Program-made: the position numbers and the translations under genes | Virus record (IMG/VR): IMGVR_UViG_3300020390_000002 | Location: 1-64,000 of that record | DNA: 64,000 nt | From: a virus | Reading direction: 5' to 3' (one strand) | Notes under the pieces: model-generated | Database searches by the model: none | Seen by the model: only the letters and a program-made list of their open reading frames with translations | Told to the model about the DNA's origin: nothing | Shown: positions 5,367 through 62,306 of the stretch, in pieces | Layout: every line of letters begins with the position of its first letter | Numbering within the stretch: the first letter of the stretch is position 1

Positions 5367-5600
5367 TCAGTCGTTGCCGACCTCCCCTTGCGGGCCGCCC
5401 GTTGATTTTTCGAACACAGCGATCCGATCGCCCAGCACGACGCTGAGCGAGCACATCAGGCAGTGCTGGCGCCGCAGCAGCCTCCGCTCATCCGGGGCGA
5501 GATCGGCGAACTGATAGGTGCCCAGGAAATAGCCCAGATTGGCTCTTCGCCTATCGAGATCGGCCTTCTCTTCGACGACGCGCTGCTGAAGCGGTGTCAT
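5367..5600 (-). CDS. Small helical phage protein (crAss001_48-like)
   Basis: QQRVVEEKADLD...F..L...ERRLL..Q...M......L..RI pattern. Confidence 0.6.
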   Translation of the reverse strand: MTPLQQRVVEEKADLDRRRANLGYFLGTYQFADLAPDERRLLRRQHCLMCSLSVVLGDRIAVFEKSTGGPQGEVGND

Positions 5601-6499
5601 GCAGATTCCCCCTGAAGGTTGGTGAGTCGCGACAGATCCAGCGGCTGGTCGTGGCGCTGCCAGTCGAACGCCGACAGCGGCAACCGGGCCGGCAGCTCGC
5701 GGCCGGCATCGGGGTTGGTGTAGCAGCCGTACATCGGCGAGCTGAATACCAGCTGATTGATGTTCTTGAGCAGCTCCGGGGTCGCCATGCCGGCGACATG
5801 CTCGACGCCGTCGTTGTTCTTGCGCCCGGTCTTCTCGGTCGCCGAGTGCTTGTAGTAGAACGCCTTGAGGTCGCGGATCGCCTTCTTGCGCAGCCCCGAC
5901 GGCATGGTCTCGATCTCTTCCAGGATCGCCTCGGAGTCCGCCGGGTGGGCGTCGAAATACCGCGCCATGAGCACGATGCCCTGGTCGTACATCTTCGCCA
6001 GGGTCGGCTCGTTGAACACGAAGCCGGCGCGCATGGCGAAGGGGTTGAACTTGCTCATCGAGGAGGCCAGCTCGGTGTAGCGCTTGCCTTCCATACGACA
6101 GGCCAGGTTGAGCATCCGATAGCTCACGCCGACGCTGCGATAGAGCGTATCGACGACGGTGCGGCTGCAGGTGTTGAAGTTCCGGTTGATGAACTTCGCC
6201 CGGTAGACGTTGGTGACCTTGGTCTCGACGCCCGGCTTGAGCTTGGGGAACATGATGTGGCGCTGGGCGAGCAGCAGACGCGGCACGCACAGAACGACCA
6301 CACCCACCAGCTGCGGGCCATGCTCGGTCTCGAGCATGCAGCGCCAGTAATGCGGGCCGACCAGATTGCCTTCCGCCTTGTAGTGGAAGCGATGCAGTCG
6401 GTCCCAGTCGGCGGTCACGCCGCGCTCGACATACATCCGGTCGAGCAGGGAAAACGGCTGGGCGTCGCCGGAGCGGCGCTCGATGGTGACGTCACGCAT
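5597..6499 (-). CDS. GNAT-fold acetyltransferase-like protein, putative DNA-modification enzyme
   Basis: SRTVVDTLYRSVGVSYRML resembles GNAT acyl-CoA motif A; MSKFNPFAMRAGF C-terminal motif; next to ABC ATPase and ParB genes. Confidence 0.7.
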   Translation of the reverse strand: MRDVTIERRSGDAQPFSLLDRMYVERGVTADWDRLHRFHYKAEGNLVGPHYWRCMLETEHGPQLVGVVVLCVPRLLLAQRHIMFPKLKPGVETKVTNVYRAKFINRNFNTCSRTVVDTLYRSVGVSYRMLNLACRMEGKRYTELASSMSKFNPFAMRAGFVFNEPTLAKMYDQGIVLMARYFDAHPADSEAILEEIETMPSGLRKKAIRDLKAFYYKHSATEKTGRKNNDGVEHVAGMATPELLKNINQLVFSSPMYGCYTNPDAGRELPARLPLSAFDWQRHDQPLDLSRLTNLQGESA

Positions 6500-6806
6500 C
6501 GGCAGCGATCAGCTGCGCCAGGGTGCGCAACTGGCGCTGCCCGTCGATCATCACCGCCAGCAGCACGGTGTCCCGGGCCTTGTAGATCGGATTGCGGCGA
6601 TAACCGTCGGTGAGCACCACGCCCGAATAGAGCATGCCGCGGGTGTGCATTTCGTCCCACCCGTAGACCAGCGGCGTATGCAGCTTGTCCTCGGCCGTCT
6701 CCGCGCTGCTGCGCTCGTGGCAGTAGCCTCGGAACAGGTTGACGTTGCCGGCGAGCACGAGGATCGGCTTCGGCCGGCGCCACTTCTTCTTCGGGGTGTT
6801 GATCAC
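6492..6806 (-). CDS. Hypothetical protein
   Basis: Overlaps both neighbours in the operon. Confidence 0.55.
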   Translation of the reverse strand: MINTPKKKWRRPKPILVLAGNVNLFRGYCHERSSAETAEDKLHTPLVYGWDEMHTRGMLYSGVVLTDGYRRNPIYKARDTVLLAVMIDGQRQLRTLAQLIAADA

Positions 6807-7456
6807 GAGCGGCGCTCCGGGTAGGTGGATACAGCGACCCGGTTCTCGTAGTGCTTGGTCACCACGAGGGTCGGGTTGAGATCGAATTCGAGATCGCTGT
6901 GGGTAGTGGCCACCAGCACGGTTGCGCCAGCCTCGCGCGCCATCTTCTGCAGGCAGAAGGCCACGACCTTGGCGGTGTCGCGATCCAGGGTCGCGCCGAA
7001 CTCGTCAGCGACCCAGACGGTCGCGCCGGACTCGATGACCTTGGCGAGCTTGAAGCGATACTTCTGCCCGTCGGAGAGCTGACTCGGCGAGCGCACGAAC
7101 AGATAGGCGTCGTTGAGCCCGGCCATCGACAGCAGACGCACGGCGTCCGCCATGTTCTCGCCCACCTGGTCGATCAGGGGGCGCTCGTCGTATTGCACCT
7201 CGTCGAGCGAGGCGACGCGCAGCCACTCCTGGGTGCGCATCTGACGATGCAGTTCCTTGAGCAGCTGCGACTTGCCCGAGCCGGACTGGCCGGTGATATA
7301 GACCACGTCGCCCTGCAGCACCTCGAGCTTCAGCCCCTCGTAGAGCACGAACTCCTTGTTCGCCAGGCCGATGCCGAAGGCTTCGGCGCACTCGAGCACT
7401 CGCGGGGTGCGATCGACACGCGAGGAGAACGACTTGCTGATGACGTATTCGGTCAT
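6803..7456 (-). CDS. Soluble ABC-type ATPase
   Basis: GQSGSGKS, signature LSDGQ, Walker B WVADEF, H-loop ATTH; no permease nearby. Confidence 0.9.
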   Translation of the reverse strand: MTEYVISKSFSSRVDRTPRVLECAEAFGIGLANKEFVLYEGLKLEVLQGDVVYITGQSGSGKSQLLKELHRQMRTQEWLRVASLDEVQYDERPLIDQVGENMADAVRLLSMAGLNDAYLFVRSPSQLSDGQKYRFKLAKVIESGATVWVADEFGATLDRDTAKVVAFCLQKMAREAGATVLVATTHSDLEFDLNPTLVVTKHYENRVAVSTYPERRS

Positions 7457-8115
7457 GCCGGCAGCCCGCTGTGCTTCTCGGCGTACATCAGGAAGGCATC
7501 CAGCCCCTCGGCTTCGGTCTCCTCCTCGATGCGCCCGATGAAGGCGGCCACGATCTTCTGCATGGTCGCGGGGACCCTCTTGAACCCCAGCAGGTCGGTG
7601 ATCGCCACGTCGCCCTTCTTGGCGTTCTCGATCGCGGCTTCCTGGGTGCGGGTCTGGGCATCCACGGAGGCGCCCAGATCGATGACCACCTTCTCGTCGC
7701 TGAAGTCGCCGAGATCGGCGGTCAGAAAGTCCAGCTCGCGCGCGTCGAAGCCGGTGTTGAGCAGGTCGTCGGTCATCGCCAGCGCGGCCAGCTCGGCCTG
7801 CAGCAGCTCGGTGTCGTAATCGGTCGAGGAGACGCGGTTGTCGGCCAGGCGAGCCGCCTTGACCTGGTCGGGGGTGAGATCGTCACGCACGATCACCGGC
7901 ACCTGGGTCATGCCCAGCTTGAGCGCCGCCAGGCGCCGGCCGTGCCCCTTGATGATCACGCCGTCGGCGTCGACCACGATCGGCTGATCCCAGCCGTGCT
8001 CGCTGATCTGCTGGGCGAGCTTCGTGACCTGCAGCTCGTCGTGGATCTTGGCGTTCTTTTCGTAGGGCAGGATGGTCTCGATGTCCCGCGCGACGATCTT
8101 GAGCTTGTCGGTCAT
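7453..8115 (-). CDS. ParB/Srx N-terminal domain protein
   Basis: PYEKNAKIH...GWDQPIVVD...IIKGHGRRLAA...RLADNR. Confidence 0.9.
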   Translation of the reverse strand: MTDKLKIVARDIETILPYEKNAKIHDELQVTKLAQQISEHGWDQPIVVDADGVIIKGHGRRLAALKLGMTQVPVIVRDDLTPDQVKAARLADNRVSSTDYDTELLQAELAALAMTDDLLNTGFDARELDFLTADLGDFSDEKVVIDLGASVDAQTRTQEAAIENAKKGDVAITDLLGFKRVPATMQKIVAAFIGRIEEETEAEGLDAFLMYAEKHSGLPA

Positions 8116-8262
8116 TTACCAGCCCTCGCTGAAATCAAGCGGCTCGCGCTCGTCGACGGGCTCGTATTGCTCGCCGGCCGGGCACTCGTCACAGACGTCG
8201 GAGTTGCAGTCCTCGAAGTTCACGCAGGAAAGGCACTCCGGGAAACGGATTCGGTCATTCAT
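8116..8262 (-). CDS. 48-aa Cys-rich protein (not in ORF track)
   Basis: MNDRIRFPECLSCVNFEDCNSDVCDECPAGEQYEPVDEREPLDFSEGW fills the gap between the two ParB genes. Confidence 0.7.
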   Translation of the reverse strand: MNDRIRFPECLSCVNFEDCNSDVCDECPAGEQYEPVDEREPLDFSEGW

Positions 8263-8950
8263 GGCTTGGCCCCTTCCCCTGGGCCGAATGGGTGATGAGA
8301 TGGAGTAGCGCGTTGCCGGCGTTGATCTCGGCGAGGTCGTCGGTGAACGACTGCGTGCGCATGATCTTTTCGATGACGTCGGTGACCACGTGGGCGTCCT
8401 TGACGGGCACGCGGAACTTGATCGTCTGATGGGTGGGCGGTGCCGTGGGCTCCAGCGGCGCGGTCGTCACCGTGGTGGGCTCATCGGGGAAGCCGATGCT
8501 GTCCAGATCGATGTCGGTGGCGGCGAAGATCGCGTCCACATCGGTCATCTCGATCGGCAGCAGTTCCACCAGGGTGTCGGCGCCCAGCTCACGGAAGATG
8601 TCGGCAAGCAGCAGGCTGTCGTCGGTGCCGTAGCGGCCGTTGTCGATCAGCCCGATCTCCTTCGCCTGTGCGTCGTCGATCGGCCCCAGGTTGATGACCG
8701 GCACGCTGGCCAGACCCATGCGCTCGGCGACCTTGACGCGGTGCGCGCCGCCCAGGATTTCGAGCTGGCCGTCGGCACGCTCGCGCACCAGCACGGGCTT
8801 GAACATGCCGTTGCGACGGATGGACGCCTCGATCTTCACCTCGTTCTCGGGACCGACCACGTTCGGGTTCCACGGATTCGGGTGCAGCCGAGACGGATCG
8901 ATCTTGAGGATTTCGTGTGCGTCCAAAAAAGATTCTCCCAGGGGTTGCAT
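8255..8950 (-). CDS. ParB/Srx N-terminal domain protein
   Basis: LHPNPWNPN...GMFKPVLVRE...EILGGAHRVK; exact start uncertain. Confidence 0.88.
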   Translation of the reverse strand: MQPLGESFLDAHEILKIDPSRLHPNPWNPNVVGPENEVKIEASIRRNGMFKPVLVRERADGQLEILGGAHRVKVAERMGLASVPVINLGPIDDAQAKEIGLIDNGRYGTDDSLLLADIFRELGADTLVELLPIEMTDVDAIFAATDIDLDSIGFPDEPTTVTTAPLEPTAPPTHQTIKFRVPVKDAHVVTDVIEKIMRTQSFTDDLAEINAGNALLHLITHSAQGKGPSHE

Positions 8951-8973
8951 TTAAGTCAGTGCTGACTTACTAT
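8937..8973 (+). promoter_or_regulatory. Sigma70-like promoter with palindromic operator in spacer
   Basis: CCC-N5-TTGCAT-N17-TACTAT; TAAGTCAGTGCTGACTTA at 8952-8969, between divergent operons. Confidence 0.75.
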
Positions 8974-10696
8974 GACTGCACGTTTTATCACGAATGAGGC
9001 GCCACAGGCAACAGAAACCGTGAGCAGGATCATCCAAATAGCCCATAATGCGGTCAACGCGATGCTGGTTAAGCCAGACGAGGCCGTACAGCTAGAGGCT
9101 CAGCAGATGCTGAGCTATATGGTTGAGGGTGCAGAGCGTTCCGCGGCCTATCAGGCTGCCGAATGGGATGGTCGGTCGACGTTCTTCGACTTCCGCAACA
9201 ACGGTTTCCCCACTGGCTTCGTCGAGCTGGTCAAGCGTCGTCTGACCAAGCTCGGCTACGAGGTCAAGATCGTGCGCAAGCCCCTGCCGGCCGCGCTCGG
9301 CCCGACCCATCCGGTCGTTGACACGTTTGCGGTCGATCCCCGTTACGAGTATCAGCCGCGCACCGTGGATCTGCTGATCAAGCACGGCATGATGATCGCC
9401 CAGGTCGCCACCGGCGGCGGCAAGTCGCGCATCGCCAACCTGGCCACCGCGCGGATCAAGCGCCCCACCCTGTTCATCACCACCCGCTCGGTGCTCATGC
9501 ACCAGATGAAGGACGCCTTCGCGGCAGCCCTGAAGGTGCGGGCCGAGAACGGCGAGCCGGATCTGCGCAATGCCGAAGTTGGGGTCATGGGCGACAAGGA
9601 ATGGCGCCCGCGCGGCTATATCAACGTCGCGACCGTGCAGACCCTGGCCGCGCGGCTGCGCGAGCCCAATTTCGTGATCTCTTCGAAGAAGAAGGGCAAG
9701 GACGGCAAGCCGTTGAGCTCCGAAGAGCGCGAAGCCCTGGGCGTGGCGCAATACCGGCGCATGAAAAAGCGTCGCGAGGAGACCCTGCGGCTGCTGAGCC
9801 TGTTCCAGTTCGTGATCGCCGAGGAAGCCCATGAGGCCGGCGGCGACACCTTCTTCCAGATCATGCGCCACTGCACCCGCGCCCACTACCGGCTGGCGCT
9901 GACCGCGACGCCGTTCATGCGCGCGGACGCAGAATCGAACATGCGCCTGATGGCCTCCTGCGGGCCGATCGGCATCCGGATCACCGAGAAGCTGCTTATC
10001 GATCGCGGCATCCTCGCGACCCCGAGCTTTCGCACCATCGTGACCGGCTACGCGCCCGACAAGGACGCCCTCGCCCTCTACGAGAAACCCAAGCCCGGCA
10101 AGACGCGCATCTCGACGGTGCTGGGCAACACGTCCTCCTACCAGCGGGCCACCAAGCTCGGCATCGATTTCAACCTGGCGCGCAACCGCGCGATCGTCGG
10201 CGAGTGCGTGCGCGCGCGCCGCTACGGCCTGCCCGTGATCGTGCTCGTGAACCACACGGTCCACGGCAAGATCGTGCTGGCGATGCTGGAAGCGGCCGGC
10301 CTGAACGCGCAGTTCATCTGGGGCGACGACGACAGCGCTGCGCGCCGGGCTGCCCTGCTGGGCCTGGCCGGCGGCATGCTCGATGTCGTGATCGGCTCCA
10401 CGATCCTCGACGTGGGCGTCGATGTGCCCAGTGTCGGGATGATCATTCTGGCCGGCGGCGGCAAGGCTGAAGTGGCCCTGCGTCAGCGCATCGGCCGCGC
10501 GCTGCGCGAGAAGAAGGACGGCCGCCCCAATCGCGCCTTCATCGTCGACTTCGCCGACGACTTCAATATCCACCTGCGCCGGCACGCCATGACCCGACGC
10601 GCAATCGTCGCGGACACCCCCGGCTTCGTCGAGAACCAACTGCCTGTCGGGGCGGACTTCGACTTCACCGGCTTCGAATTACAGGAGATCGCATGA
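8972..10696 (+). CDS. SF2 DEAD/DEAH-like helicase
   Basis: ATGGGKS, variant motif II AEEAH, LTATP, DVGVDVP, QRIGRALR; true start may be GTG 9020. Confidence 0.92.
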   Translation: MTARFITNEAPQATETVSRIIQIAHNAVNAMLVKPDEAVQLEAQQMLSYMVEGAERSAAYQAAEWDGRSTFFDFRNNGFPTGFVELVKRRLTKLGYEVKIVRKPLPAALGPTHPVVDTFAVDPRYEYQPRTVDLLIKHGMMIAQVATGGGKSRIANLATARIKRPTLFITTRSVLMHQMKDAFAAALKVRAENGEPDLRNAEVGVMGDKEWRPRGYINVATVQTLAARLREPNFVISSKKKGKDGKPLSSEEREALGVAQYRRMKKRREETLRLLSLFQFVIAEEAHEAGGDTFFQIMRHCTRAHYRLALTATPFMRADAESNMRLMASCGPIGIRITEKLLIDRGILATPSFRTIVTGYAPDKDALALYEKPKPGKTRISTVLGNTSSYQRATKLGIDFNLARNRAIVGECVRARRYGLPVIVLVNHTVHGKIVLAMLEAAGLNAQFIWGDDDSAARRAALLGLAGGMLDVVIGSTILDVGVDVPSVGMIILAGGGKAEVALRQRIGRALREKKDGRPNRAFIVDFADDFNIHLRRHAMTRRAIVADTPGFVENQLPVGADFDFTGFELQEIA

Positions 10697-11271: not shown

Positions 11272-11406
11272 ATGAAGAAAGCCCTGTCCGTCCTGGCCCT
11301 GATCGCAGTTCTGGCCCTGGCCGCCTGCAGCCAGCCGACCGAGGAAGACCTGAAGGACAACAACTTCGGCCAGATCCAGTCGGAAGAAACCGTCGTTATC
11401 TGCTGA
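11272..11406 (+). CDS. 44-aa lipoprotein (not in ORF track)
   Basis: AAGGAG RBS; MKKALSVLALIAVLALAAC lipobox. Confidence 0.75.
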   Translation: MKKALSVLALIAVLALAACSQPTEEDLKDNNFGQIQSEETVVIC

Positions 11407-12323
11407 TGAAAAAAGCACCCCTGGTCATTTACCACCACCCTTGCGCCGACGGCATGGCCGCGGCGTGGGCGGTTCGGCTTGCGCTGCCGAACGCCGAGTT
11501 CGTGCCCTCTCATTACGGCACGAACCCGCCCGACGTCACCGGACGTGACGTCATCCTCGTGGACTTCTCCTACAGCGCCGATGTGCTGCGCGAGATGAGC
11601 GCGACCGCGAACACCATCCTGGTGATCGACCACCACGAGTCGGCGGCGAATGACCTGGGGGCGCTTCGGCGCCCGCCCAAGGGCGCCTACCGCCCGGACA
11701 GCTGGAGCTGGAACGTGGTCGAACCGACCCACTGCCCGGTCTTCGCGATCTTCGACATGACGCACTCCGGCTGCGTGCTGGCGTTCCACTACTTCAACCC
11801 GCTGCTGATTCCGCCGCTGCTGCTTCTGCACCTCGAGGATCGAGACCTCTGGCGCTTTCACATGCACGGCACGGAAGAAATCCAGGCTGCGGTCTTCTCC
11901 CATCCCTTCGACATCGACGTCTACGACCGGCTGATGGCGATGGACGTCGAAAAGCTCTACCGCGACGGCAAGCCGATCCTGCGCAAGTATCACCGCGACA
12001 TCGACGAGATCCTGTCCGCCCAGGTTCGTCTGATGACGATCGCCGGGCACGAGGTGCCGGTGGTCAACTGCTCGAAGGTGTTCGGCTCGGACGCGGCCAA
12101 CGAACTGTGCAAGCGCAACCCCGATGCGCCGTTCACGGCCTACTACTATGACCGCGCGGACTGTCGCGAAATCTCGCTGCGCACCATTCGGGACGACGTG
12201 AACGTCGCCGAGATCGCCGAGACCTATGGCGGTGGCGGGCACCGCAAGGCAGCCGGATTCATCACGGCCCTGGACTGGAACGGCGACATCACCATCAAGG
12301 AGGTCACATGCGCGGCGTGCTGA
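11406..12323 (+). CDS. DHH/DHHA1 phosphoesterase
   Basis: YHHPCADG, LVDFS, IDHH, GGGHRKAAG. Confidence 0.9.
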   Translation: MKKAPLVIYHHPCADGMAAAWAVRLALPNAEFVPSHYGTNPPDVTGRDVILVDFSYSADVLREMSATANTILVIDHHESAANDLGALRRPPKGAYRPDSWSWNVVEPTHCPVFAIFDMTHSGCVLAFHYFNPLLIPPLLLLHLEDRDLWRFHMHGTEEIQAAVFSHPFDIDVYDRLMAMDVEKLYRDGKPILRKYHRDIDEILSAQVRLMTIAGHEVPVVNCSKVFGSDAANELCKRNPDAPFTAYYYDRADCREISLRTIRDDVNVAEIAETYGGGGHRKAAGFITALDWNGDITIKEVTCAAC

Positions 12324-12899: not shown

Positions 12900-12907
12900 C
12901 CCACGCA

Positions 12908-13677: not shown

Positions 13678-13828
13678 GCGCTACGACGTGGTGCTGGTCG
13701 ACTACCTTGAAGACGGCACGATCTACGACTACGCGACCTTCCCCGACTGCGGGCTGCTGCGTCGCTGCGTGCTGACTTTTGCGGCAATGACGCTCGGCTA
13801 CGAGGTCGAGTTCCATCCCACGAAATAA
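13670..13828 (+). CDS. Hypothetical protein
   Basis: MGKRYDVVLVDY; overlaps upstream stop. Confidence 0.55.
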   Translation: MGKRYDVVLVDYLEDGTIYDYATFPDCGLLRRCVLTFAAMTLGYEVEFHPTK

Positions 13829-14032
13829 TCCATCCCCAGCACTGGATTTATCTTCACATTGCGCGATAATAGCTCAGTATTGAGCGAATAAATCCGATCG
13901 CGCGTCCTTATAGACGTTCGTATTAGATTCCTTCAATCAGCAAGTTATGGACGCTCGGTAAGCTCAATTTTAATTGTGTTAAAGCTGAAACTGCACACTT
14001 TCCGATAAATCACTAATAATGCAGGAGAACTG

Positions 14033-14470
14033 ATGTATACCGAGCTACACCTCACCGCCATGTTATCCGCTGACACGCCCACGGACGTGATCGACACGAT
14101 CAAGCGCATGACTGGCCAGTCCAACGATCCGATCCGCAAGCCGGACCATGCCCTGTTCCAGATTCCGGGCTGGGATTCGATGCTTCAGTCGGATTCGGCC
14201 CTGTTTGCTGGCATTACCTACAGCCGTATCGAGCAGCGCAACGCCAGCGGACGCTACGCCCTGTCGGTGCATTGCAATTTCCGCACCGAAGAGAAGTTGC
14301 CCGCCTTCCTGGAATGGATCTGGCAATACATCGACAGCGCGCCGGGCCGCTTCATCGGCTATCACCGCCGCGAGGGCGAGGCGGACCCCACCCTGATCTA
14401 CGTCCCCAAACCCGAAATGCTCGAGCCCAGCGAGGCGCTCGTCGAAGTGGACATGGCGGGCTACGAATGA
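14033..14470 (+). CDS. Hypothetical phage protein
   Basis: AGGAG RBS; MYTELHL...FLEWI..YI. Confidence 0.7.
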   Translation: MYTELHLTAMLSADTPTDVIDTIKRMTGQSNDPIRKPDHALFQIPGWDSMLQSDSALFAGITYSRIEQRNASGRYALSVHCNFRTEEKLPAFLEWIWQYIDSAPGRFIGYHRREGEADPTLIYVPKPEMLEPSEALVEVDMAGYE

Positions 14471-15690
14471 GCACCCAGCACTACATCTACGACGGCAGCG
14501 CCCGTCACCCGATCAAGGGCTGGACCAACGGCGTCGTCGTCGAACACGAGGCGCAGCAGCAGCTGCGCAACATCGCCAACCTGCCCTTCATCCATAAGCA
14601 CGTCGCGGTCATGCCCGACGTCCACTTCGGCAAGGGCGCGACGGTCGGCTCGGTGATCCCGACCCGCAAGGCGATCGTGCCGGCGGCGGTGGGTGTCGAC
14701 ATCGGCTGCGGCATGTGCGCCGTGCGCACCTCGCTGTCGGCCGCCGACCTGCCCGAGTCCATGCGGGCCGTGCGTGCCGAGATCGAGCACGCCATTCCGC
14801 ACGGCGGCCCGGGCGTCAAGGGCTCCTGGAAGGAAGCCGGGCGCTACGGCACGCCCAACAGCGTGGCCCGGCTCTGGCGCGATCGTTTCGAGCAGCCCTA
14901 CAAGGCGCTGCTCGACAAGCACCGGCATGCGTCGTCGAAGGCGACCGCGGATCAGCTGGGCACGCTCGGCGGCGGCAACCACTTCATCGAGGTCTGTCTC
15001 GACGAGGACGACCGCGTCTGGGTGATGCTGCATTCCGGCTCGCGCGGCCTGGGCAATCGCATCGGCAGCTACTTCATCGACCAGGCCAAGGAGCTGATGG
15101 CGCAGATGCACATCGAGCTGCCCGATCGCGATCTGGCCTATCTGCCGGAGGGCGTCCCGCTGTTCGCGGACTACTGGAGCGCGCTGCAGCTCGCGCAGGA
15201 CTTCGCGCGTGCATCGCGTGACGTCATGCTCGATCGCACGCTGGAAGCGCTGCGCAAGCACTTGCCGCCCTTCGTGCTCACGGAGCAAGCAATAAATTGC
15301 CACCACAATTACGTCGCGCTGGAGAACCACTACGGCGAGAACGTCTATGTGACCCGCAAGGGCGCCGTGCGCGCTCGGGAGAACGACCTGGGGATCATCC
15401 CTGGTTCGATGGGCACCGGCAGCTTCATCGTGCGTGGCAAGGGCAACCCCGAGAGCTTCTGCAGCTGCTCGCACGGCGCCGGCCGCGCGATGAGTCGCGG
15501 TGCTGCCAAGCGCGCGATCTCGCTCGAGGACCACGCGAAGGCGATGACCGGCATCGAGGCCCGGCTGGATGCCGGCGTGCTCGACGAATCGCCCGCCGCC
15601 TACAAGGACATCAATGCGGTCATGGCCGCGCAATCAGACCTGATCGAAGTCGTCTATCGGCTGCGTCAGATCGTCAACGTGAAGGGGTAG
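14467..15690 (+). CDS. rtcB: RtcB RNA ligase
   Basis: MPDVHFGKG, GVDIGCG, GTLGGGNHF, HSGSRG, HHNY, PGSMG, SHGAGR. Confidence 0.97.
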   Translation: MSTQHYIYDGSARHPIKGWTNGVVVEHEAQQQLRNIANLPFIHKHVAVMPDVHFGKGATVGSVIPTRKAIVPAAVGVDIGCGMCAVRTSLSAADLPESMRAVRAEIEHAIPHGGPGVKGSWKEAGRYGTPNSVARLWRDRFEQPYKALLDKHRHASSKATADQLGTLGGGNHFIEVCLDEDDRVWVMLHSGSRGLGNRIGSYFIDQAKELMAQMHIELPDRDLAYLPEGVPLFADYWSALQLAQDFARASRDVMLDRTLEALRKHLPPFVLTEQAINCHHNYVALENHYGENVYVTRKGAVRARENDLGIIPGSMGTGSFIVRGKGNPESFCSCSHGAGRAMSRGAAKRAISLEDHAKAMTGIEARLDAGVLDESPAAYKDINAVMAAQSDLIEVVYRLRQIVNVKG

Positions 15691-18676: not shown

Positions 18677-18886
18677 CTTTACGCTACCGATCGCACGTCG
18701 CTATGCTGGGCACGTGGGCGCCTTCCTTCCTTCGCATCCCTCGAACCAGGTGGCGCTCACGCCTTGCCAGCGGGGCGCCGCCAGGCGCCCCTGCTGGTCT
18801 TCTCGGCGGTCTGCGCTATCCCTGTACGGCCTGGGTCGAGATCGCGTTCCCTGACCCTCTTCCCGCTCGGATTTTCGGGCAATAGA

Positions 18887-19043
18887 CCCCTACCCCTCGA
18901 CCCCGTCACCCCTAGACCCTCAGCGAGTACGTTCTACGGGCTCAGGGCTGGGTGCTGGGGCGTGGGCGTGGGCGGTGGTGCAAGGCTGTGGGTGCTGGGG
19001 GCTGGGTGCTGGGGGCTGGGTGCTGGGTGCTGGGTGCTGGGGG
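18887..19043. repeat. C-run tract followed by (GCTGGGT/GCTGGGGG)n G-run repeat
   Basis: CCCC runs at 18887-18919; more than 10 GGG runs at 18945-19043. Confidence 0.9.
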
Positions 19044-19099
19044 CGTGCCTGTGCAAGGCTTGTCTCCGGGGTCCGCCGCTCCTGTGCAAGGCTGGTCTC
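18978..19099 (+). repeat. Three direct repeats with core GTGCAAGGCT
   Basis: 18978-18987, 19048-19066, 19081-19099; last two are CCTGTGCAAGGCT(T/G)GTCTC. Confidence 0.85.
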
Positions 19100-19241
19100 A
19101 CCCCTGGAAAAATACGGCGGCTGGGCGTAGCGATAGATGTATGCTACATCTAAGACTTTGCTTGTATGCTACACACAGTCATCCATCTGTATGTAGCGCG
19201 CATTCATGTGCTTGTGTGTTACATGCAGGAATGCAGTGCAC

Positions 19242-19275
19242 AAAAAAAGCGCGCTAGTCGTGAGACTAGCACGCT
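19242..19275 (-). terminator. Rho-independent terminator
   Basis: AGCGTGCTAGTC-TCAC-GACTAGCGCGC followed by T7 on minus strand. Confidence 0.85.
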
Positions 19276-19293
19276 GTGTGCTGCGCTCTACTA

Positions 19294-19560
19294 CTAGAGC
19301 GCTTCTAGTTCGAGCATGAGCATCTTGTGTGCACGGATCGCGCGCTGAGCGCGCTGGATCGCGTCCATGCTCATGCGATGCGTGCGCTTGTTCATGTAGC
19401 GAATCGAGCGCTTGCATGCGTCGATGAACGCGCGATCATCTGCGCGTCGCGATTCGCTGGATCGATTCGCGGAAAGCTTCAGATAAACGCGCATCGCGTC
19501 CACGTCCGCGCTATCGAATGCTTTATGTATTGCTTGCGGATTCATGCTGATTAGTTTCAT
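19294..19560 (-). CDS. Hypothetical basic protein with no Gly
   Basis: 88 aa; own promoter and terminator. Confidence 0.7.
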   Translation of the reverse strand: MKLISMNPQAIHKAFDSADVDAMRVYLKLSANRSSESRRADDRAFIDACKRSIRYMNKRTHRMSMDAIQRAQRAIRAHKMLMLELEAL

Positions 19561-19601
19561 TGTGCTGATTGTTTTAGTGTCATGCGATATTGCACGATTT
19601 A

Positions 19602-19638
19602 ATATTAGCACACTGTTTATGCTTGTGCGCATCTTGGC
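19602..19638 (-). promoter_or_regulatory. Promoter of the 88-aa gene
   Basis: GCC...TGnTAATAT; shares G(C/T)GCACAAGC...AGTGTG with the promoter at 20315-20342. Confidence 0.65.
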
Positions 19639-19653
19639 AAACTTTTTTTGCAC

Positions 19654-19682
19654 AAAAAAGCGCGCTCAAATGAGCGCGCTTT
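19654..19682 (-). terminator. Rho-independent terminator
   Basis: AGCGCGCTCA/TGAGCGCGCT hairpin plus T-run. Confidence 0.85.
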
Positions 19683-19698
19683 GTGACTCAGCGCTGAT

Positions 19699-20268
19699 TT
19701 ACTTATACAGCGCGACTAGAGCGACGATGAACGGATGCTTTCTGTCGAGCGTCCACGTGCGACGCTTCGCGTCTTTGTCCGTTTTCTGTTCCGTGACGCA
19801 TCCGAGCAGCTTCAGCATATTCATAAAGTAGATCGCTTGCGTGTCCGTCACGTGATTCATCTGCGCTTGAATCTCGCGATTGCTGAACGTTTTCTGACTA
19901 TGCTTCGCTTTGATATAGTGCAGTGCAGCGTCTGCTGCGTTGTCCTTCACGCTCGCGAGCGTCGCATTGACAGACAACGCTGTCATCATGCTTGTGAAGC
20001 GCTTCAGAAACTCGCGTGATTGACGCGCGACATGCGTCGGATTGATCGCGAAAGTCTCCATTGTCGCGAGCGCTTCATCGCTGCACTTTTCCATGCGTGC
20101 GATATACTGAGCATGCGTATCCGCAGTCTTTGCGAGCGCGTTGTCCTCCGGAGTCTGGAGCGCTGCATGCTTGTCGCGCGTCGCTTCGAACTCAGCGCGG
20201 ACACTTGCGAATGCTTCGCGAGCGTTCGAGACAAAAACGTTCGTGCTGTTGTTGTTCGTGCTATCCAT
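19699..20268 (-). CDS. Hypothetical protein, paralog of 30794-31357, putative C-terminal wHTH
   Basis: AAGGAAG RBS; shared ED..L.....THA, P..V...SREF.KR and H.T.TQA.Y......LG.V motifs. Confidence 0.8.
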   Translation of the reverse strand: MDSTNNNSTNVFVSNAREAFASVRAEFEATRDKHAALQTPEDNALAKTADTHAQYIARMEKCSDEALATMETFAINPTHVARQSREFLKRFTSMMTALSVNATLASVKDNAADAALHYIKAKHSQKTFSNREIQAQMNHVTDTQAIYFMNMLKLLGCVTEQKTDKDAKRRTWTLDRKHPFIVALVALYK

Positions 20269-20754
20269 GATCGTGCTTCCTTTGTAGTGTGCGTGGATGC
20301 TTTCCACAATTCAAACTATACACACTTTTTGCGCTTGTGCACGTTTTTCTGAAAAATATTTTGCATTGTTTTCTATCGTCGTTCGAAAAACGATAGTGCA
20401 AAACTATCGCTGTTCTATTCCTTCAAACACGCGCGAGCGCGCGCGAGTAGCACACTTTTCAAGATAGTGTCAATTTATTTTTGTAAATATTTTTCTTGCA
20501 CAATCCTGCAAAGCATGATCCAGATTCCTGCGCGCGTGCTCATAGTCCGCGCGCGGCGTCAACGATCGGCAGTGATTTATTTTCGCTGCGTGATACAGCG
20601 ATTTTCGTGTAGGATGCACGCATAATAGTTGTACTATACATGCACAATAGCTGCACTATGCAGACGATTTTCGGCGGCACGGCGGATGGCACGGCCTGGC
20701 GTGCGGCGAACGGCAGGCGCCGCGGCACGGCCCTTGGCCACAGCGCCGCGGGCA

Positions 20755-20780
20755 TGATCTGAGCCGCCTTATACCTATGG
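20755..20780 (+). repeat. 26-bp repeat, copy 1 (copy 2 at 22698-22723)
   Basis: TGATCTGAGCCGCCTTATA(C/T)CTATGG. Confidence 0.85.
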
Positions 20781-20911
20781 GCCGCCGCGGTGCCATAGGG
20801 GCCGCCTTATATGTATAGGCCGAGCCGATCCCTATAGGGGCCGCGGCAAGCCATAGGGCCGCGGCTGGGACGGCGACAAAAGAACGCTGCGGGGCGCGCA
20901 GCGTCCTGGGG

Positions 20912-21196
20912 TTATGGGTGCATGAACTCCTTGAACACGCGATCCAGAAAAGCGTGCGCTGCGCGCTCCTCATTGTCGTCCTGGTCGTCGGTGAGCGCGT
21001 CCTGAATCATCGGGGTCGCGATCAGCGAAACGAATCGCGCTTCCGCTTCGCTGCGCGTCCGACATGGCCGCGTCTGATGCAGCGCGCCATCTCTGTGACA
21101 GTCCACGCGGAATTGCGTCTGTCCGTCCTGAGACTGCTCGATCAGCATGATCGATTCGCTCGATTCGGTGAATTGCGCAATGATGTTTTCACTCAT
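20912..21196 (-). CDS. Hypothetical acidic protein
   Basis: Own promoter (21239-21275) and hairpin near 20885-20904. Confidence 0.7.
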   Translation of the reverse strand: MSENIIAQFTESSESIMLIEQSQDGQTQFRVDCHRDGALHQTRPCRTRSEAEARFVSLIATPMIQDALTDDQDDNEERAAHAFLDRVFKEFMHP

Positions 21197-21288
21197 GGGT
21201 TTTCTCGTTGTGCGTCAGTCCTAGCGCTGACGTAGATCATTATCGAATCCAGCACACGGCACTCCAACGATCGGCGATCATTCACCAC

Positions 21289-21350
21289 ACACGCGCGTGG
21301 CCGGGGTTAGGCGAACCGTACACGCGCGTGGCCGGGGTTAGGCGAACCGT
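21289..21350 (+). repeat. Perfect 2x31-bp tandem repeat
   Basis: ACACGCGCGTGGCCGGGGTTAGGCGAACCGT twice, then 10-bp GCCRTGGGTC repeats to 21380. Confidence 0.95.
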
Positions 21351-22048: not shown

Positions 22049-22357
22049 TCATTCCCACACGCTTTTCCGAATAGCCCCTGCGTCGAAGTCTGCATAGAGC
22101 GCGACGTGCGTGAATTCGCGCAGTTCGACGTCGAGCGCGAGCAGTTCGACAGAGAACTGTCCGTTGATGATGCCAACGAATGGATCGCTGAGCGCTCCGT
22201 GGTCGTAACTGAACGCTTTGTCTTCGCTGTCTTCGCTGATCGTGAAAGATTGCGTTGCGTCCTTGAGCGTGTCCGTGATCTGCGCATAGATGCTGTCGTT
22301 GAATGCGCTGTAGTGCTCGATGATGCTTTTGTCGCGTGCTGTGTTTTGTGTGTTCAT
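22049..22357 (-). CDS. Hypothetical acidic protein (GGB-poor gene)
   Basis: Promoter and operator at 22398-22434. Confidence 0.7.
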   Translation of the reverse strand: MNTQNTARDKSIIEHYSAFNDSIYAQITDTLKDATQSFTISEDSEDKAFSYDHGALSDPFVGIINGQFSVELLALDVELREFTHVALYADFDAGAIRKSVWE

Positions 22358-22792
22358 AGCTCTTTTCGTTGTTATCAGCGATTGTGCTGACAACTGAATA
22401 ATAGCTCAGCGCTGACTTAATGCACAGCAACGGCGAAAATTATTTTCGATTCACCAGGAGCGTGCAGTCGTATCCAGCCATGGCTGTGTCCAGCGTGCCG
22501 CGGCAGCACGGCACTTCGACACACGGCACGCGGCACTTTTGCTTCCCCGAAACAGTCGAAAACGGCTGTATTGGCACAAAACAGCCATGGGGAGCGAGCC
22601 ATGGCTGCCCGGTCGTCATGGGGAGTAAGCCATGGTCAGCCATGGCGTGCCGCACCCGTATCTGCCATGGCGACCCGGTCGCCACGGGGCTCGGTCTTGA
22701 TCTGAGCCGCCTTATATCTATGGCCGTGGTGAAACGCCAAGGCGGCTGCCTTATATAAATAGGCCCCGTCGTTCACCAACGGGGCCTGGGGC

Positions 22793-30793: not shown

Positions 30794-31357
30794 TCAGGCG
30801 GCGACTGCCTCCTTGCCCTTCTCGGCGATCGAAGCCATCGCCGGATTGTCGTAGTCGAAGGTCATCGTGGTCTCGATACCCTGGCCCCGGACGCTGGAGA
30901 CGCCGCCGAGTTCCATGAAGAAGGTCTTGATGTAGTTCGCCTGGGTCGCCGTCTTGTGCCCGGTGACGCGCATGATCTTGGCGTAGTCCAGCGTCGCCGG
31001 CTTCTTCGCCTCGATCAGCTCGATCACTGCGCGCAGCGGCTTGTCCGCCACCGCCTGCCGGAGACCCTTCGCGAACGCCACGATCGCCAAGCGCTTCTTG
31101 AACTCGCGCGAACCGGCTTCGACCTTCACCGGGTCGAGGTTGTTGCTCTCGCACCAGCCGATCGCATCGTCCGGCAGCTTGAACAGCACCTCCGCCATCT
31201 TCGCGTGGGTCTTGCTGGCGGATACGAGCTTCGCATCCTCCATGTCGCCGTGCGCCTCGAAGCGCGCCTGGGCTTCCTTCGCCGTGTTCAGACGACTCTT
31301 GATGGCGTCCTTCATGACCTTGCGGAACTTGGTGGTGTATTCATTCTTCTGCGTCAT
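30794..31357 (-). CDS. Hypothetical protein, paralog of 19699-20268
   Basis: GAGG RBS; terminator hairpin at 30766-30787. Confidence 0.8.
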   Translation of the reverse strand: MTQKNEYTTKFRKVMKDAIKSRLNTAKEAQARFEAHGDMEDAKLVSASKTHAKMAEVLFKLPDDAIGWCESNNLDPVKVEAGSREFKKRLAIVAFAKGLRQAVADKPLRAVIELIEAKKPATLDYAKIMRVTGHKTATQANYIKTFFMELGGVSSVRGQGIETTMTFDYDNPAMASIAEKGKEAVAA

Positions 31358-31674
31358 GGTGTTACCTCTCATGCTGTGTGTGAATTGACACTTTCGTGCC
31401 TGTTTTTCTATGTCGCTTATTTCCCTGCGACAACTATAGTTTCGTGGAGGCGACGCGGCTGCGCAATAGATTTTTACGGCTAATTTCAACGCCTTGCGAT
31501 TTCACCACAAGAAAGGCAAAGCGAGGCGTTGCGTCGAATCCAGCGCTCCATGCTCGGATATGTCTTATCTTTTGCCGTCGCTTAGAAGCGCTCACACGCG
31601 CTCGCCCTGCGAAGACGATACGACGCGCTCAGTGCATCCGCGCATCGGACAGAACCGCGGCTGAAGCCGGATAC

Positions 31675-42082: not shown

Positions 42083-42490
42083 CTATGCGGTCGCGTGGGA
42101 GCCGCCCGTGTGGACGGCATCACAGCCGGAGCCGCCCGTGTGGGCGGGGATGTAGCCGAAGTCCTGGCGCTGACGCACTACGCGCAGGGGCTCATTGCCC
42201 GAGTCGAGGCGGGTGCAGATCGTCAGCTCCGCTTTCGGCAGATTCCACCGCGCGACCTCGTTGCCGGCGTGGAAGAACAGGCCGAACATGCCGTTGTTGC
42301 GATCGGTGACGACCATCGACTGATCGAACCGCACGCCGAGCGCCTCGAGCGCGAGCTGGCCGAAGTTGATGCCTTCGATCGTGACGCCGCCGCAGACACT
42401 GCGCCGCAGGCCACGTGCGCCGTGCTTGTTGCGCAGGTCATCCATGCGATGACCGACCTGGGCCAGAATTACGTCTTGCTTGGTTTCCAT
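42083..42490 (-). CDS. Hypothetical protein
   Basis: TGATG coupled to thyA. Confidence 0.5.
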   Translation of the reverse strand: METKQDVILAQVGHRMDDLRNKHGARGLRRSVCGGVTIEGINFGQLALEALGVRFDQSMVVTDRNNGMFGLFFHAGNEVARWNLPKAELTICTRLDSGNEPLRVVRQRQDFGYIPAHTGGSGCDAVHTGGSHATA

Positions 42491-43977
42491 CAGATTGCTA
42501 CCTCCGCAGAGATTTTCGGGTGTGAGTTGTAGCCCTGGAGATCGAAGTCGTCGTAGACGAACTCGTCGATGGTGGCGCGCGGTGCGATCACCATTCGGGG
42601 CGGCAGCCGGGGCTCACGGCTGAGCTGTTCTTGCACCTGCTCGAGGTGATTCGAATAGATATGGGCGTCGCCGATGGTGTGGACGAAGGTCTGCGGCACG
42701 TGGCCGGTCACCCGCGCGACCATCATGGTCAGCAGCGCATACGAGGCGATGTTGAACGGCACGCCCAGGAACAGGTCGGCGCTGCGCTGATAGAGCTGGC
42801 AAGAGAGTCCGCGGCGCGGGATGTTGGCGCGGTCCATCGCGTCATGCCCGCCCCAGCCGCCCTTCGGCTCGCCCCACTGCTGGCGATACAGCTCGCAGCG
42901 GTGACCCAGGGTCAGCGGCTGGGAGTAGAACTGGAACAGCAGATGGCACGGCGGCAGCGCCATCAGCTCCACTTGCCCCGGATTCCATGCGGAAACGATA
43001 TGCCGGCGACCATCGGGGTTAGTCTTGAGACCCTCGATCACGTTGGCGAGCTGATCCACCCCATCATTGAGGTTTTCTACGGATACCAGCTCGAACCCGT
43101 ATCGTTTTTTACCGAGCTTCGGGTCGACCCAGAGATCTGACAGGTTTCGACCATCAACGGCACGGCCGTCTGCATTCATGCGCTCGCAGAAAGCCGCTAT
43201 GTTGGTGAACTGATACGACCTGTTTTCATCCTTGATCGTGTAGAGCTTGTTCGCGCCAAAGCCCGCGTTCGCTTCGTCGGTCACCCAAACACAATGTTCA
43301 GGGGCATAGACGAAGCCGTTACCCGCGGAGTCCTTATCGAGAACGTATCGTCGATCAGACTTTACCTTGTCCGAGTATCCCGGCAGCCGCTCGGCGTCCG
43401 CCGCGAATGCGGCGAACTCCAACCAGCGGTTGCAAACCGAAACGCCGCGCGCGCCATATCTCGCGTAGCTAGGCGAGTGAATGTCATAGCAGCGCGCGAC
43501 CATCCCTTCCCATGTTTTACCCAGAGCGTGCTTGGACTTGCCGGCGCCATTAGCTACGCCGAGATAGGTAGCGGCAACACCCTCCCGCAGTTTGGGCGTC
43601 GGCTGCGGCACACTTTCCGGCCGCTTGCCGTAGCGTCGCCAGGACCAGCCGTACACCGGCCCCAGATCCCCGTTCTCGTCGGCCCACTCGTCCCATATCC
43701 GCACGCCGTTTTCTTTCAGGTAGCGGATATTGGTGTCGCCGCGGATGAACCACAGCAGCTCATGGATCACCGACTTCAGGTGAACCTTCTTGGTGGTCAG
43801 CAGCGGGAAGCCGCGCGCCAGGTTGAAGCGCATCTGGGCGCCGAAGTAGCTGATCGTGCCGGTGCCGGTGCGATCGTCCTTCTCGACGCCATGCAGCAAC
43901 ACCCGGGTGAGCAGGTTCAGATATTCCGCCTCGTTGGCTACGCTGGCGGCGAACAGTGCGTTGTGGGGGCTACTCAT
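42490..43977 (-). CDS. thyA: Thymidylate synthase with in-frame HNH-type insertion
   Basis: [59 protein letters not shown]. Confidence 0.95.
43063..43629 (-). mobile_element. HNH homing-endonuclease-like domain inside thyA
   Basis: W..M..RC......Y..YG.RGV.VC.RW..F..F..D and LDKD...Y.PEHCVW; lower-GC codons. Confidence 0.8.
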
Positions 43978-56793: not shown

Positions 56794-56828
56794 GTTCTGT
56801 CCTCTTGTTGTGTGCTGAGTCTCTGCTT

Positions 56829-58117: not shown

Positions 58118-58254
58118 GCGTGTTCTCCATGTTTTCTGATATGAAAATGATATGCGCACAGAAGCGGCGAAGCACGCAATGGCGAAATGCCACGAGGAGA
58201 TTCGCCGCTGTCGCGCGGATAAACTCCGCTCAGGGTAAAAATCGAGGGAAAAAA

Positions 58255-58488
58255 ATGACGTTGGACGGAATAAAGGAGCGACTCGCATTCGCTCGGGTCG
58301 CAACGGGCCTGATTGTAGTGACGGACGCTTCAATAATTGGCGTGACCTTCAACTCCTGGGGCAACCCGGCGCGCGAGATCACGATCGCCTGGGGCGCGAC
58401 GAGCGCCATTGTCTTAACGGCGATGGCCGTGTGCGCTATCATCTACGCAACGCACCTGATTCGCCGCATGGAGGAAGATCATGCTTGA
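58255..58488 (+). CDS. Two-TM membrane protein on the opposite strand
   Basis: GAGG RBS; hydrophobic. Confidence 0.6.
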   Translation: MTLDGIKERLAFARVATGLIVVTDASIIGVTFNSWGNPAREITIAWGATSAIVLTAMAVCAIIYATHLIRRMEEDHA

Positions 58489-58573
58489 GCTATTCAACAA
58501 CGTAATGGTCCCCCTGTCGGCGGTGTCCTTTGTCGCCATGCTGGGCTGGGCGATCTACTACATCACCCACTAG
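58481..58573 (+). CDS. 30-aa single-TM protein
   Basis: MLELFNNVMVPLSAVSFVAMLGWAIYYITH; GGAGG RBS. Confidence 0.55.
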   Translation: MLELFNNVMVPLSAVSFVAMLGWAIYYITH

Positions 58574-58587
58574 ATCGGACAGTGCAT

Positions 58588-58616
58588 AAAAAGCGGGCCA
58601 TCGGCCCGCTTTTTTT
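58588..58616. terminator. Bidirectional terminator
   Basis: AAAAAGCGGGCC-ATC-GGCCCGCTTTTTT. Confidence 0.9.
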
Positions 58617-58637
58617 ATGCCTGCGATCCGCGAGCGG

Positions 58638-59660: not shown

Positions 59661-59669
59661 GGTGCCTCC

Positions 59670-60602: not shown

Positions 60603-60672
60603 TCTTGCCCCTCTAGGAAGCAGGGCCGGATTAACCGGCCCTGCGGGTTGCGCCTTGTGTCCGCGACCGGGC

Positions 60673-61659: not shown

Positions 61660-61722
61660 AGATAGGTTCCTCTTAGTTGTGCAGTCGTAAATGTAAGTCA
61701 GTGGTGATTTATTACTGCGATG

Positions 61723-62235
61723 TTAATGTTCTCGTCCAACCTGGCCTGCGATTCGGGTTGCCTCGTCACGAGCCGAGCCGCCTGAACCCGTTGTTCCGCT
61801 AACGGTGACACGGGCCTGGCCCTTCATTTCTTCGAGCTGACGCTTACCGACCTGCACGAGCATGTCGCGACGCTGCTTGAAGGCTTCGAGCGCGTTACGG
61901 GCCATTTCCGCGATCATGCGCGAGTCATTGGCCAGCTTCGCTGCCTGGATATAGTCGGGGTGCAGGATGATCCGCTCCTCGACCATGTTCTCCGTCACTT
62001 TCTTGCCGCCCTCCGCGGCATCCTCGCGCACCGCATGGGCGACACGCGCGCGCACGTGGGTCATGTGCGTCTTGAACCGATCCGCCTGATGCTGCGCCTG
62101 CGCGTAAATGTTCCCGTAGTAGGAATACAGCGACGCCTGCTGCATCATGGCCGTGTCGATGTCCACGTCCGAAAAAGCGACCTGCTCCTTGAGCTTCGCA
62201 GGGTCGATGAACTTCTTGAAAACAGGAGCGGTCAT
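61723..62235 (-). CDS. UvsY-like recombination mediator
   Basis: Helical; KVTENMVEE.I..HPDY...EAFKQRRDML. Confidence 0.6.
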   Translation of the reverse strand: MTAPVFKKFIDPAKLKEQVAFSDVDIDTAMMQQASLYSYYGNIYAQAQHQADRFKTHMTHVRARVAHAVREDAAEGGKKVTENMVEERIILHPDYIQAAKLANDSRMIAEMARNALEAFKQRRDMLVQVGKRQLEEMKGQARVTVSGTTGSGGSARDEATRIAGQVGREH

Positions 62236-62263
62236 AGAATTTTGTCCTCTTTCTGATGAATGA

Positions 62264-62306
62264 ACTATAGTCGTCGCTGAGTAGAAAGTCAATCAGCGGT
62301 GACTTA
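62264..62306 (-). promoter_or_regulatory. Promoter with overlapping operator
   Basis: ACC-N5-TTGACT-N17-TATAGT; palindrome at 62289-62306. Confidence 0.8.

Follow-up and report, generated by a model that had tools for sequence, protein, structure and literature searches.

We analysed the first 64,000 bp (hereafter the window) of the IMG/VR virus record IMGVR_UViG_3300020390_000002, which comprises 91,335 bp at 62% GC and is estimated to be 83% complete. At positions 19125–20554, the window contains a block of 1430 bp in which the three-letter words GGC, GGG and GGT (together GGB) and their complements (VCC) are nearly absent, and this block harbours the gene of a 189-amino acid (aa) protein with a predicted winged-helix fold.

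A word-free cassette on the minus strand

The block contains a single GGB/VCC site, a GGC at 19636, compared to about 132 sites expected from the base composition of the block itself, and GGG, CCC, ACC, GCC and GGT do not occur at all. GGA and TCC are used freely (12 and 23 copies, 35 together vs. 44 expected), which agrees with what the first-pass annotation had noticed in this region. The genome average is about 120 GGB/VCC per kb, or about 24 per 200 bp. The GGB-free gaps of 919 and 512 bp found here are the longest two in the record, and the third has a length of 231 bp. When gaps were scaled by site frequency, GGC/GCC, GGT/ACC and GGG/CCC scored 48–55 in the window phage, and the highest-scoring words of a related complete genome reached about 17–22. 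The GC content of the block is 50% (G and C each 355 among the 1427 bases counted), and a surplus of GC and CG steps keeps it at this level. The ban is essentially absolute and local (1.4 kb), and it applies to either strand, to every reading frame and to non-coding DNA as well. A search of the block region for near-identical DNA in the phage collection returned no match.

The predicted features of 19125–20554 add up to a self-contained cassette on the minus strand, with putative promoters, the winged-helix gene, a second open reading frame (ORF) and terminator-like hairpins. It begins with tandem sigma70-like promoter elements (20315–20510, minus strand), where GTGCAC (20342–20337) is combined with TATAGT (20320–20315) and a further TTGACA element is present upstream; an A/T-rich tract sits upstream of these elements. 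The winged-helix gene occupies 19699–20268 (minus strand; 189 aa, or 202 aa for the frame that is open to 20307). Its Shine–Dalgarno sequence AAGGAAG is built on the tolerated GGA, which also serves as a glycine codon. Between the two genes lies a GC hairpin with A and T runs (19657–19682), seen in the sequence and as an inverted self-match, that is terminator-like in both directions. The second gene is an ORF for a basic protein of 88 aa (19294–19560, minus strand; ATG at 19560, longest frame to 19653 with 119 aa), which contains no glycine, no tryptophan and one proline, and for which no match was found in Pfam, PHROG or phage proteins. Its promoter-like element (19602–19638, minus strand) consists of TAATAT (19607–19602) with TG ahead and the weak −35-like hexamer TGCGCA (19631–19626) 18 nt upstream. 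The lone GGB/VCC site of the block (19636–19638) lies 5 nt upstream of TGCGCA, so this exception does have the promoter position that had been assigned to it. Past the 88-aa ORF, we predicted an intrinsic-terminator-like hairpin (19248–19275, minus strand), and two further promoter-like elements (19137–19216, minus strand), with the ACAAGC motif and ATACAT or TACATA, are aimed into the repeat array to the left of the block.

The promoters of the cassette were predicted from sequence alone, by a shared motif (CACAAGC ... AGTGTG ... TAnnnT), and a strict scan for the sigma70 consensus found none in the block. With its host-type promoter-like elements the cassette looks like a first-expressed unit, as would be expected from the earlier proposal that the first-transcribed genes avoid the word.

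In an AlphaFold2 model (pLDDT 94.3), the N-terminal part of the 189-aa protein forms a long helical hairpin and the C-terminal part a winged helix, and the order of the C-terminal elements fits this fold. The best Foldseek matches were MepR, SarA, MarR, CadC and HlyU (probability 0.96–1.0, E about 0.06–0.1). According to the model, the product is a DNA-binding protein of the MarR/SarA/ArsR type without an enzyme domain. It has no Pfam or PHROG family and belongs to a phage-specific family of its own, with 24 representatives among 1.84 billion proteins and with the conserved motifs S-R-E..K.R and H.T.TQA.Y. Glycine, proline and tryptophan are essentially nil in 8 of the 24 representatives (none in seven, a single proline in one) and amount to 6–10% in the others; the majority of the family stems from Logan assemblies, and for these members the type of ban was guessed from this content alone. 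As the share of these amino acids varies within the family, the fold itself does not require their absence.

We recoded the winged-helix gene synonymously, using the codon usage of the window phage itself, and obtained 57.5 ± 5.9 banned words with a minimum of 38 in 2000 trials; the observed number is 0. The ban is maintained by selection and not by composition. The window phage also encodes a paralogue outside the block (30794–31489, minus strand; 231 aa, 28% identity, E 5e-8). This gene contains 71 GGB/VCC (84 on recoding) and its product 11 glycines and 7 prolines, which corresponds to normal word use. The paralogue is surrounded by small genes on the minus strand and is preceded by a palindrome-type promoter of its own (30689).

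Lineage-specific words in related phages

The predicted gene content of the window phage matches that of a large siphovirus of the SSU5/Nickievirus supergroup, and the gene order is that of Pseudomonas phage nickie with reversed orientation. A search of genome contigs returned no relatives. By a family-alignment search, we found GG/CC-free blocks of 0.66–1.5 kb around the homologous gene in seven of nine IMG/VR relatives. In the phages nickie, hairong, ZY21 and Nican01, the homologous gene lies within a block of 1.08–1.14 kb where GG and CC are nil, and in Nickievirus-like phages of about 110 kb the cassette occupies the same place in the gene order.

Which word is banned depends on the lineage. 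The Nickievirus-like phages ban GGN; here even the ribosome-binding sites are without GG, and the words that survive at the block edges are mostly GGA or GGT. The window phage bans GGB and leaves GGA free. The same holds for the block of L019 (IMGVR_UViG_3300028388_003330, 5522–6287), with 30 GGA vs. 4 other GG words in 764 bp. L019 contains two winged-helix copies, one within the block and one outside, and the ban affects the block copy only. Since L019 shows the GGB ban with free GGA at a GC content of 49%, the pattern does not arise as a by-product of a high GC content. A third type is found in L025 (metagenome contig Ga0208014_1000682, 2619–3551; about 60% GC), where GGV is banned: 930 bp contain 11 GGT, 1 GGC and no GGA or GGG, which mirrors the GGB ban of the window phage. 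No ban was detected in L024, in the second copy of L019 and in the paralogue of the window phage. Judging from these sequences, a ban, where it exists, always covers GGC and GGG, which form its core, and an A or T as third letter is negotiable. The ban persists across 28–54% amino-acid divergence and three word types, and the protein family is under purifying selection. The recoding and the relatives together confirm that the block is real, kept by selection and conserved.

Repeat-rich flanks, neighbouring genes and other promoters

The non-coding DNA on both sides of the block is dense in the banned words, with 54 GGB/VCC per 200 bp in 18901–19100 and 46 in 20701–20900. The dense flanks of the first-pass annotation were thus recovered at about twice the genome average, and they are built of tandem and boxed repeats. 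In the left flank, Tandem Repeats Finder detected an outer C-rich 8-nt repeat (TAGACCCC, about 5 copies; 18883–18919, plus strand) and a G-rich 7/14-nt array of GCTGGGT (about 14 copies; 18945–19044, plus strand), which contains GGG, GGC and GGT and no GGA. If transcribed from the minus-strand promoter-like elements, the left array would give a C-rich RNA. Two 19-nt boxes CCTGTGCAAGGCT.GTCTC follow at 19048–19099 (plus strand), with a third core copy at 18978–18985, and have counterparts in nickie, L019 and L025, where CCCTTACAC-type boxes are repeated three times on the downstream side of the cassette; CCTGTGCAAGG boxes are likewise part of the dense flank repeats. The right flank is a GGC/GCC-rich array (20673–20870) that includes a 38-bp repeat and boxes of the palindromic type CCATAGGG / CCCTATAGGG. 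A second copy is present at 22692–22786, and nickie and L019 have similar boxes on the upstream side of their cassettes. The blocks of the Nickieviruses are also bordered by dense DNA with similar boxes, and L025 has a GCGGTTGAGGA-type tandem repeat upstream and CCTTGGA boxes downstream of its cassette.

The tolerated GGA is scarce in the flanks of the window phage (6% vs. 17%, P 8e-4) and of L019 (8% vs. 32%; combined flanks P 2e-5), and the flanks of the GGN lineages are not poor in GGA. As the arrays are repeats, this mirror of the banned word is suggestive only. A general rule that the arrays in the flanks reflect whichever word is banned was rejected, as it is true for the window phage and L019 and fails in L025.

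Two neighbouring genes on the minus strand are partly depleted, namely a 94-aa gene (20912–21196; 11 GGB/VCC vs. 27.7 on recoding) and, more strongly, a 114-aa gene (22049–22393; 6 vs. 28.9), and GGA is normal in both. The GGB-free gap of 231 bp (22201–22432) overlaps the 114-aa gene. GGB-dense spacers separate the cassette and these genes, including a 2 x 31-bp tandem repeat between depleted units (21284–21345). Such a depletion gradient in neighbouring genes points to a per-site cost in cis. A weak fourth depleted spot was observed in the AT-rich spacer before the RtcB gene (13761–14040), with 7 GGB vs. 20 expected and 11 GGA vs. 8.

Outside these units, we found no depletion that is specific to GGB relative to GGA. 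The observed/expected ratios for GGB and GGA are 0.86 vs. 0.78 in intergenic and 0.77 vs. 0.71 in coding DNA, and 0.54–0.69 vs. 0.68–0.75 around 21 palindrome-type promoter sites; a genome-wide avoidance of GGB at promoters was thus rejected. It had also been claimed that about 19 promoters carry a VCC/GGB word at a distance of 5 nt upstream from the −35 box. Among 19 intergenic candidates of the form TTGNNN-N15-19-TANNNT, VCC occurs at exactly this distance from the first hexamer in four (about 1 expected; 0–2 at other offsets), and adding 30689 and 19636 by eye brings this '−42' element to about 5–6 sites. The claim was thus reproduced only in part: the enrichment at this offset has a P of about 0.03, uncorrected for the fact that the offset was chosen, and the number of sites is far smaller than claimed. 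Three of the sites have TAGCC in common and resemble copies of one promoter type.

An 18-bp palindrome, TAAGTCAGCGCTGACTTA, with CG or TG/CA at its centre, occurs at about 22 intergenic sites, for instance at 1766, 8954, 30689, 41602 and 56835 and, past the window, at 68222, 76006 and 81110. It sits in the spacer between −35- and −10-like hexamers or directly upstream of a ribosome-binding site, and a degenerate copy lies inside the word-free block (19686). The palindrome is probably an operator or a 5′-untranslated-region hairpin of one regulon.

The packaging side of the genome includes a probable portal gene, the large terminase gene (1785–3023, minus strand) and a gene for a helix-turn-helix protein. 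The ORF at 8972–10696 (plus strand) had been annotated as a terminase; this is wrong, as it encodes a DEAD/UvsW-type helicase. It is followed by SLT, DHH and RtcB genes. Of these, the DHH/DHHA1 phosphoesterase (11406–12323, plus strand) and the RtcB RNA ligase (14272–15690, plus strand; Pfam E 4e-127) lie between the helicase and the cassette and could be a kit for tRNA or RNA repair. Neither Rfam families nor tRNA genes (ARAGORN) were found in the block region or in the window, unlike in nickie and in Stenotrophomonas phage BUCTxx99, which carry tRNA genes. Further genes of the record encode ThyA, ribonucleotide reductase, SbcCD and RecA-like, FEN and gp32-like proteins and, later in the record, Pol III alpha, CobS/CobT-like proteins, an integrase, ligase, primase, DnaB, PhoH and a tail tip protein. 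The thymidylate synthase ORF (42490–43977, minus strand) has 495 aa and Pfam ThyA matches two separate stretches of it, so that the enzyme is interrupted by a large insert, a putative HNH domain according to the first-pass annotation. Past the window, at 71842–73371 of the record (plus strand; 7842–9371 of L007), lies the gene of a tyrosine integrase with an arm-binding domain, together with a helix-turn-helix. Given this integrase, the phage may be temperate, although it is a relative of lytic Nickieviruses.

Possible readers of the word

The ban is strand-symmetric and independent of the reading frame, and it includes promoters and spacers. This indicates that the word is read on double-stranded DNA, rather than in codons or on one message. 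We rejected a cause at the level of codons or tRNAs, since the ban ignores the frame and includes non-coding DNA. The simplest inference from these properties of the sequence is that a GG word on double-stranded DNA is recognised by a factor present in the infected cell, and in this respect the first-pass idea of a DNA-level reader of GGB survives. Because the ban is local, graded and strand-symmetric, it fits a per-site cost in cis on the expression of the unit and not a cost for the survival of the whole genome. As the third letter differs between lineages, the reader would be specific and fast-evolving, with a three-letter specificity.

The reading that we favour, tentatively and with less than even confidence, is that a mark or bound factor specific to the phage lineage sits on double-stranded DNA and hinders expression in cis. 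The reader would then be encoded by the phage lineage, either as a chemical mark on the virion DNA or as a tightly bound factor at GG words, and would hinder the host RNA polymerase. In this picture, transcription of the incoming DNA could start immediately at the word-free cassette and nowhere else; a low number of sites would allow a gene to be read earlier, and the dense arrays would serve as barriers. We consider it unlikely that the more specific version applies, in which the virion DNA is chemically marked at a GG word with an evolving third letter and the mark stops host RNA polymerase, so that the unmarked cassette is the ignition key, the low-site genes come next and the arrays are barriers.

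The only candidate writer that we noticed is a cluster beside the packaging genes (5597–8950, minus strand), which encodes a GNAT-like protein, a 104-aa ORF, an ABC-type ATPase, a ParB-N protein, a 48-aa ORF and another ParB-N protein. The first-pass annotation had listed ParB, ABC and GNAT genes here. Both ParB-N proteins (7453–8115, PF02195 E 4e-6 and phrog_930 E 1e-80; 8255–8950, PF02195 E 4e-11) and the ABC-type ATPase (6803–7456, PF00005 E 1.3e-11 and phrog_293 E 4e-41, with no permease gene adjoining) were recovered with Pfam and PHROG. The 300-aa protein of 5597–6499 had no Pfam match at E 0.01 and no sequence match in PDB. Its neighbours in the ESM Atlas carry PF00583 in 16–47% of their members, and by structure it matches fused ABC_tran+GNAT clusters (TM 0.68), both of which we treat as leads only; the protein is probably GNAT-like. 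An ABC-GNAT module was predicted to acylate DNA bases (PMC7824862), and phage enzymes are known that modify DNA after replication at words of two to three letters, some of them dependent on ParB (thymine dioxygenases, NTC/NTG; PMC13229309). The first-pass annotation had linked the block to this cluster. All complete relatives with a block contain the GNAT-like gene (the L019 record is incomplete), so that no block without the cluster was found among the complete relatives. The reverse is not true, since BUCTxx99 has the whole cluster and no block, and the link is thus not supported. Furthermore, the GNAT-like gene belongs to a conserved packaging-side module, and its co-occurrence with the block therefore says little. 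That the ParB-ParB-ABC-GNAT-like cluster is the writer appears rather doubtful to us.

Several observations weigh against a mark or bound factor of the phage lineage. BUCTxx99 has orthologues of all four cluster proteins with 39–58% identity; nevertheless, in its complete genome (109,117 bp) GG- or GGB-free stretches do not exceed 136 bp, none of the two- or three-letter words has an outlier gap, and the winged-helix family is not represented. We found no methyltransferase, TGT/DpdA or other known DNA-modifying enzyme in the approximately 40 larger ORFs that were scanned, a scan that left out many small ORFs, and a DNA modification is not visible from sequence. The other promoters and the intergenic DNA avoid GGB no more than GGA, whereas a mark that blocks initiation everywhere predicts otherwise, and the model leaves the expression of the marked remaining genome unexplained. 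In addition, the flanks of L025 show no depletion of the tolerated GGT, and the flank statistics rest largely on tandem repeats, whose sites are not independent.

Alternatively, the reader could be a DNA-binding protein, namely the winged-helix protein of the cassette or a ParB-like protein, that loads on the arrays and boxes next to the cassette and occupies GG-rich DNA; the cassette would then be free of sites for self-avoidance. The confidently predicted fold of the cassette protein (pLDDT 94; MarR/SarA/ArsR-type, probability about 0.99) speaks for this explanation, as do the palindromic CCATAGGG / CCCTATAGGG boxes and the threefold CCCTT-type boxes that flank the cassette in all lineages examined, and the flanks, where banned words are enriched and, for two of the lineages, the tolerated word is scarce. 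Candidate target boxes of the 189-aa protein are CCATAGGG and CCTTGCACAGG. However, the motif H.T.TQA.Y of the recognition helix is (nearly) invariant across GGN-type, GGB-type and unbanned copies, and the winged-helix protein thus does not explain the varying third letter. Its paralogues lie in normal DNA in the window phage and L019, a winged helix normally reads 4–6 bp and not a three-letter word, and a coat over all GG-rich DNA would silence the rest of the phage too. We therefore give this explanation little weight. A reader of the host seems similarly improbable to us. It could be a defence nuclease or nickase, a reader of a CRISPR protospacer adjacent motif (PAM; CC for type I-F, NGG for Cas9) or a silencing protein, and the cassette would be purged because it must act before the counter-measures of the phage, maybe during staged entry like that of the first-step-transfer DNA of T5. 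The immediate-early look of the cassette, with strong host-type promoter-like elements and no apparent dependence on phage factors, is consistent with this, and so is the difference in the third letter between lineages that probably have different hosts (GC 45–62%). CC/GG is the PAM of common Pseudomonas CRISPR systems, and the repeat arrays on either side are reminiscent of the injection-stop region of T5. Yet TCC is used freely in the block (23 copies), so a plain CC PAM is not avoided, and GGB/VCC is not depleted genome-wide (about 120 per kb). As one cut anywhere kills the genome, a local purge against a nuclease is useful only under staged DNA entry, which is hypothetical, and evasion of a nuclease cannot account for arrays of the banned word next to the cassette. 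The ends of the published Nickievirus records are arbitrary (PMC8537276).

An RNA-level reader, such as a ribonuclease, Rho or ribosomes that pause at Shine–Dalgarno-like GG runs, would explain why early messages are purged to stay intact. The unit does look like a source of short, highly expressed messages, and the GGN lineages lack GG even in their ribosome-binding sites. Nevertheless, GGB and its complement VCC are both missing from the same strand, promoters and spacers included, and the tolerated GGA is the core of the Shine–Dalgarno sequence. UC and UCC are plentiful, although Rho prefers YC. Consequently, we regard an RNA-level reader as very improbable. The possibility that the block has no function and results from chance composition, a recent foreign segment or context-specific mutation is practically negligible. 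Its GC content is lower than that of the genome (50% vs. 62%), which might suggest such an origin, but the Poisson expectation of 132 sites vs. 1 observed excludes chance, and the over-used CG and GC steps hold the GC content at 50%. We rejected a foreign origin because the ban persists across the diverged relatives and all three word types, with purifying selection on the protein family, and an APOBEC-like mutation because TCC, which deamination of the APOBEC3G type would remove too, is kept and the proteins are conserved.

When comparing the ban to known systems, we find partial likeness to several of them. In restriction-site avoidance and CRISPR PAM depletion, selection also strips a short DNA word, down to synonymous codons. 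Such avoidance is genome-wide and partial and concerns sites of 4–8 bp or a fixed PAM, whereas the ban described here is local, essentially absolute and three letters long. Furthermore, it alters the protein composition, varies in the third letter by lineage and adjoins arrays of the same word. The hallmark of PAM or restriction-site avoidance, a known word depleted throughout the genome, was not found, given the 23 copies of TCC and about 120 GGB/VCC per kb. The pre-early (first-step-transfer) DNA of phage T5 comprises a few genes that are expressed first, from strong host-type promoters; its borders are rich in repeats, and it reportedly lacks certain restriction sites. The cassette has repeat-rich borders as well, and its promoter-like elements may correspond to host-type promoters. 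However, the first-step-transfer DNA comprises about 10 kb compared to about 1.4 kb for the block, and the word avoided here is far shorter than a restriction site. The T5 region lies within a terminal repeat at the genome end that enters first; the present record is a fragment that is 83% complete. Chlorella viruses encode frequent cutters and methyltransferases, e.g. Nt.CviPII, which acts at CCD; these enzymes likewise read words of two to four letters with CC. In the Chlorella viruses, the word is CCD and the whole genome is protected by methylation, whereas here the word is VCC and an island is free of it. No nuclease or methyltransferase of this kind was found in the scanned ORFs of the window phage. 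The ABC ATPase-GNAT modules (PMC7824862) and the ParB-dependent dioxygenases (PMC13229309) are similar to the cluster of the window phage in being terminase-side modules with ParB-like proteins and a known or predicted modification of short words. Unlike the dioxygenase modules (PMC13229309), the cluster in the window includes no dioxygenase; for the ABC-GNAT modules, chemistry and target are predictions (PMC7824862), and the same cluster occurs in BUCTxx99 without a word-free block.

In the literature, as far as searched, we found no description of such a word ban or of its reader. New here are the GGB ban in a high-GC lineage, for which GGA is a built-in control, the paralogue in the same genome with normal word use as an internal control, the gradient of depletion in the neighbouring genes, and the three types of ban inside one protein family. 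As only GGB is banned and GGA is untouched, the word has a length of three letters, and the specificity of its reader evolves. The block presents a total, local, selection-kept three-letter ban whose strength suffices to eliminate glycine, proline and tryptophan or to change their codons. Since cultured relatives exist among the Nickieviruses of Pseudomonas syringae, the question is directly testable there. If the marking of virion DNA is true, its writer might be the ParB-ABC-GNAT module, and the density of a word would set the timing of genes on incoming vs. replicated DNA, giving bacterial viruses an epigenetic programme of a novel type.

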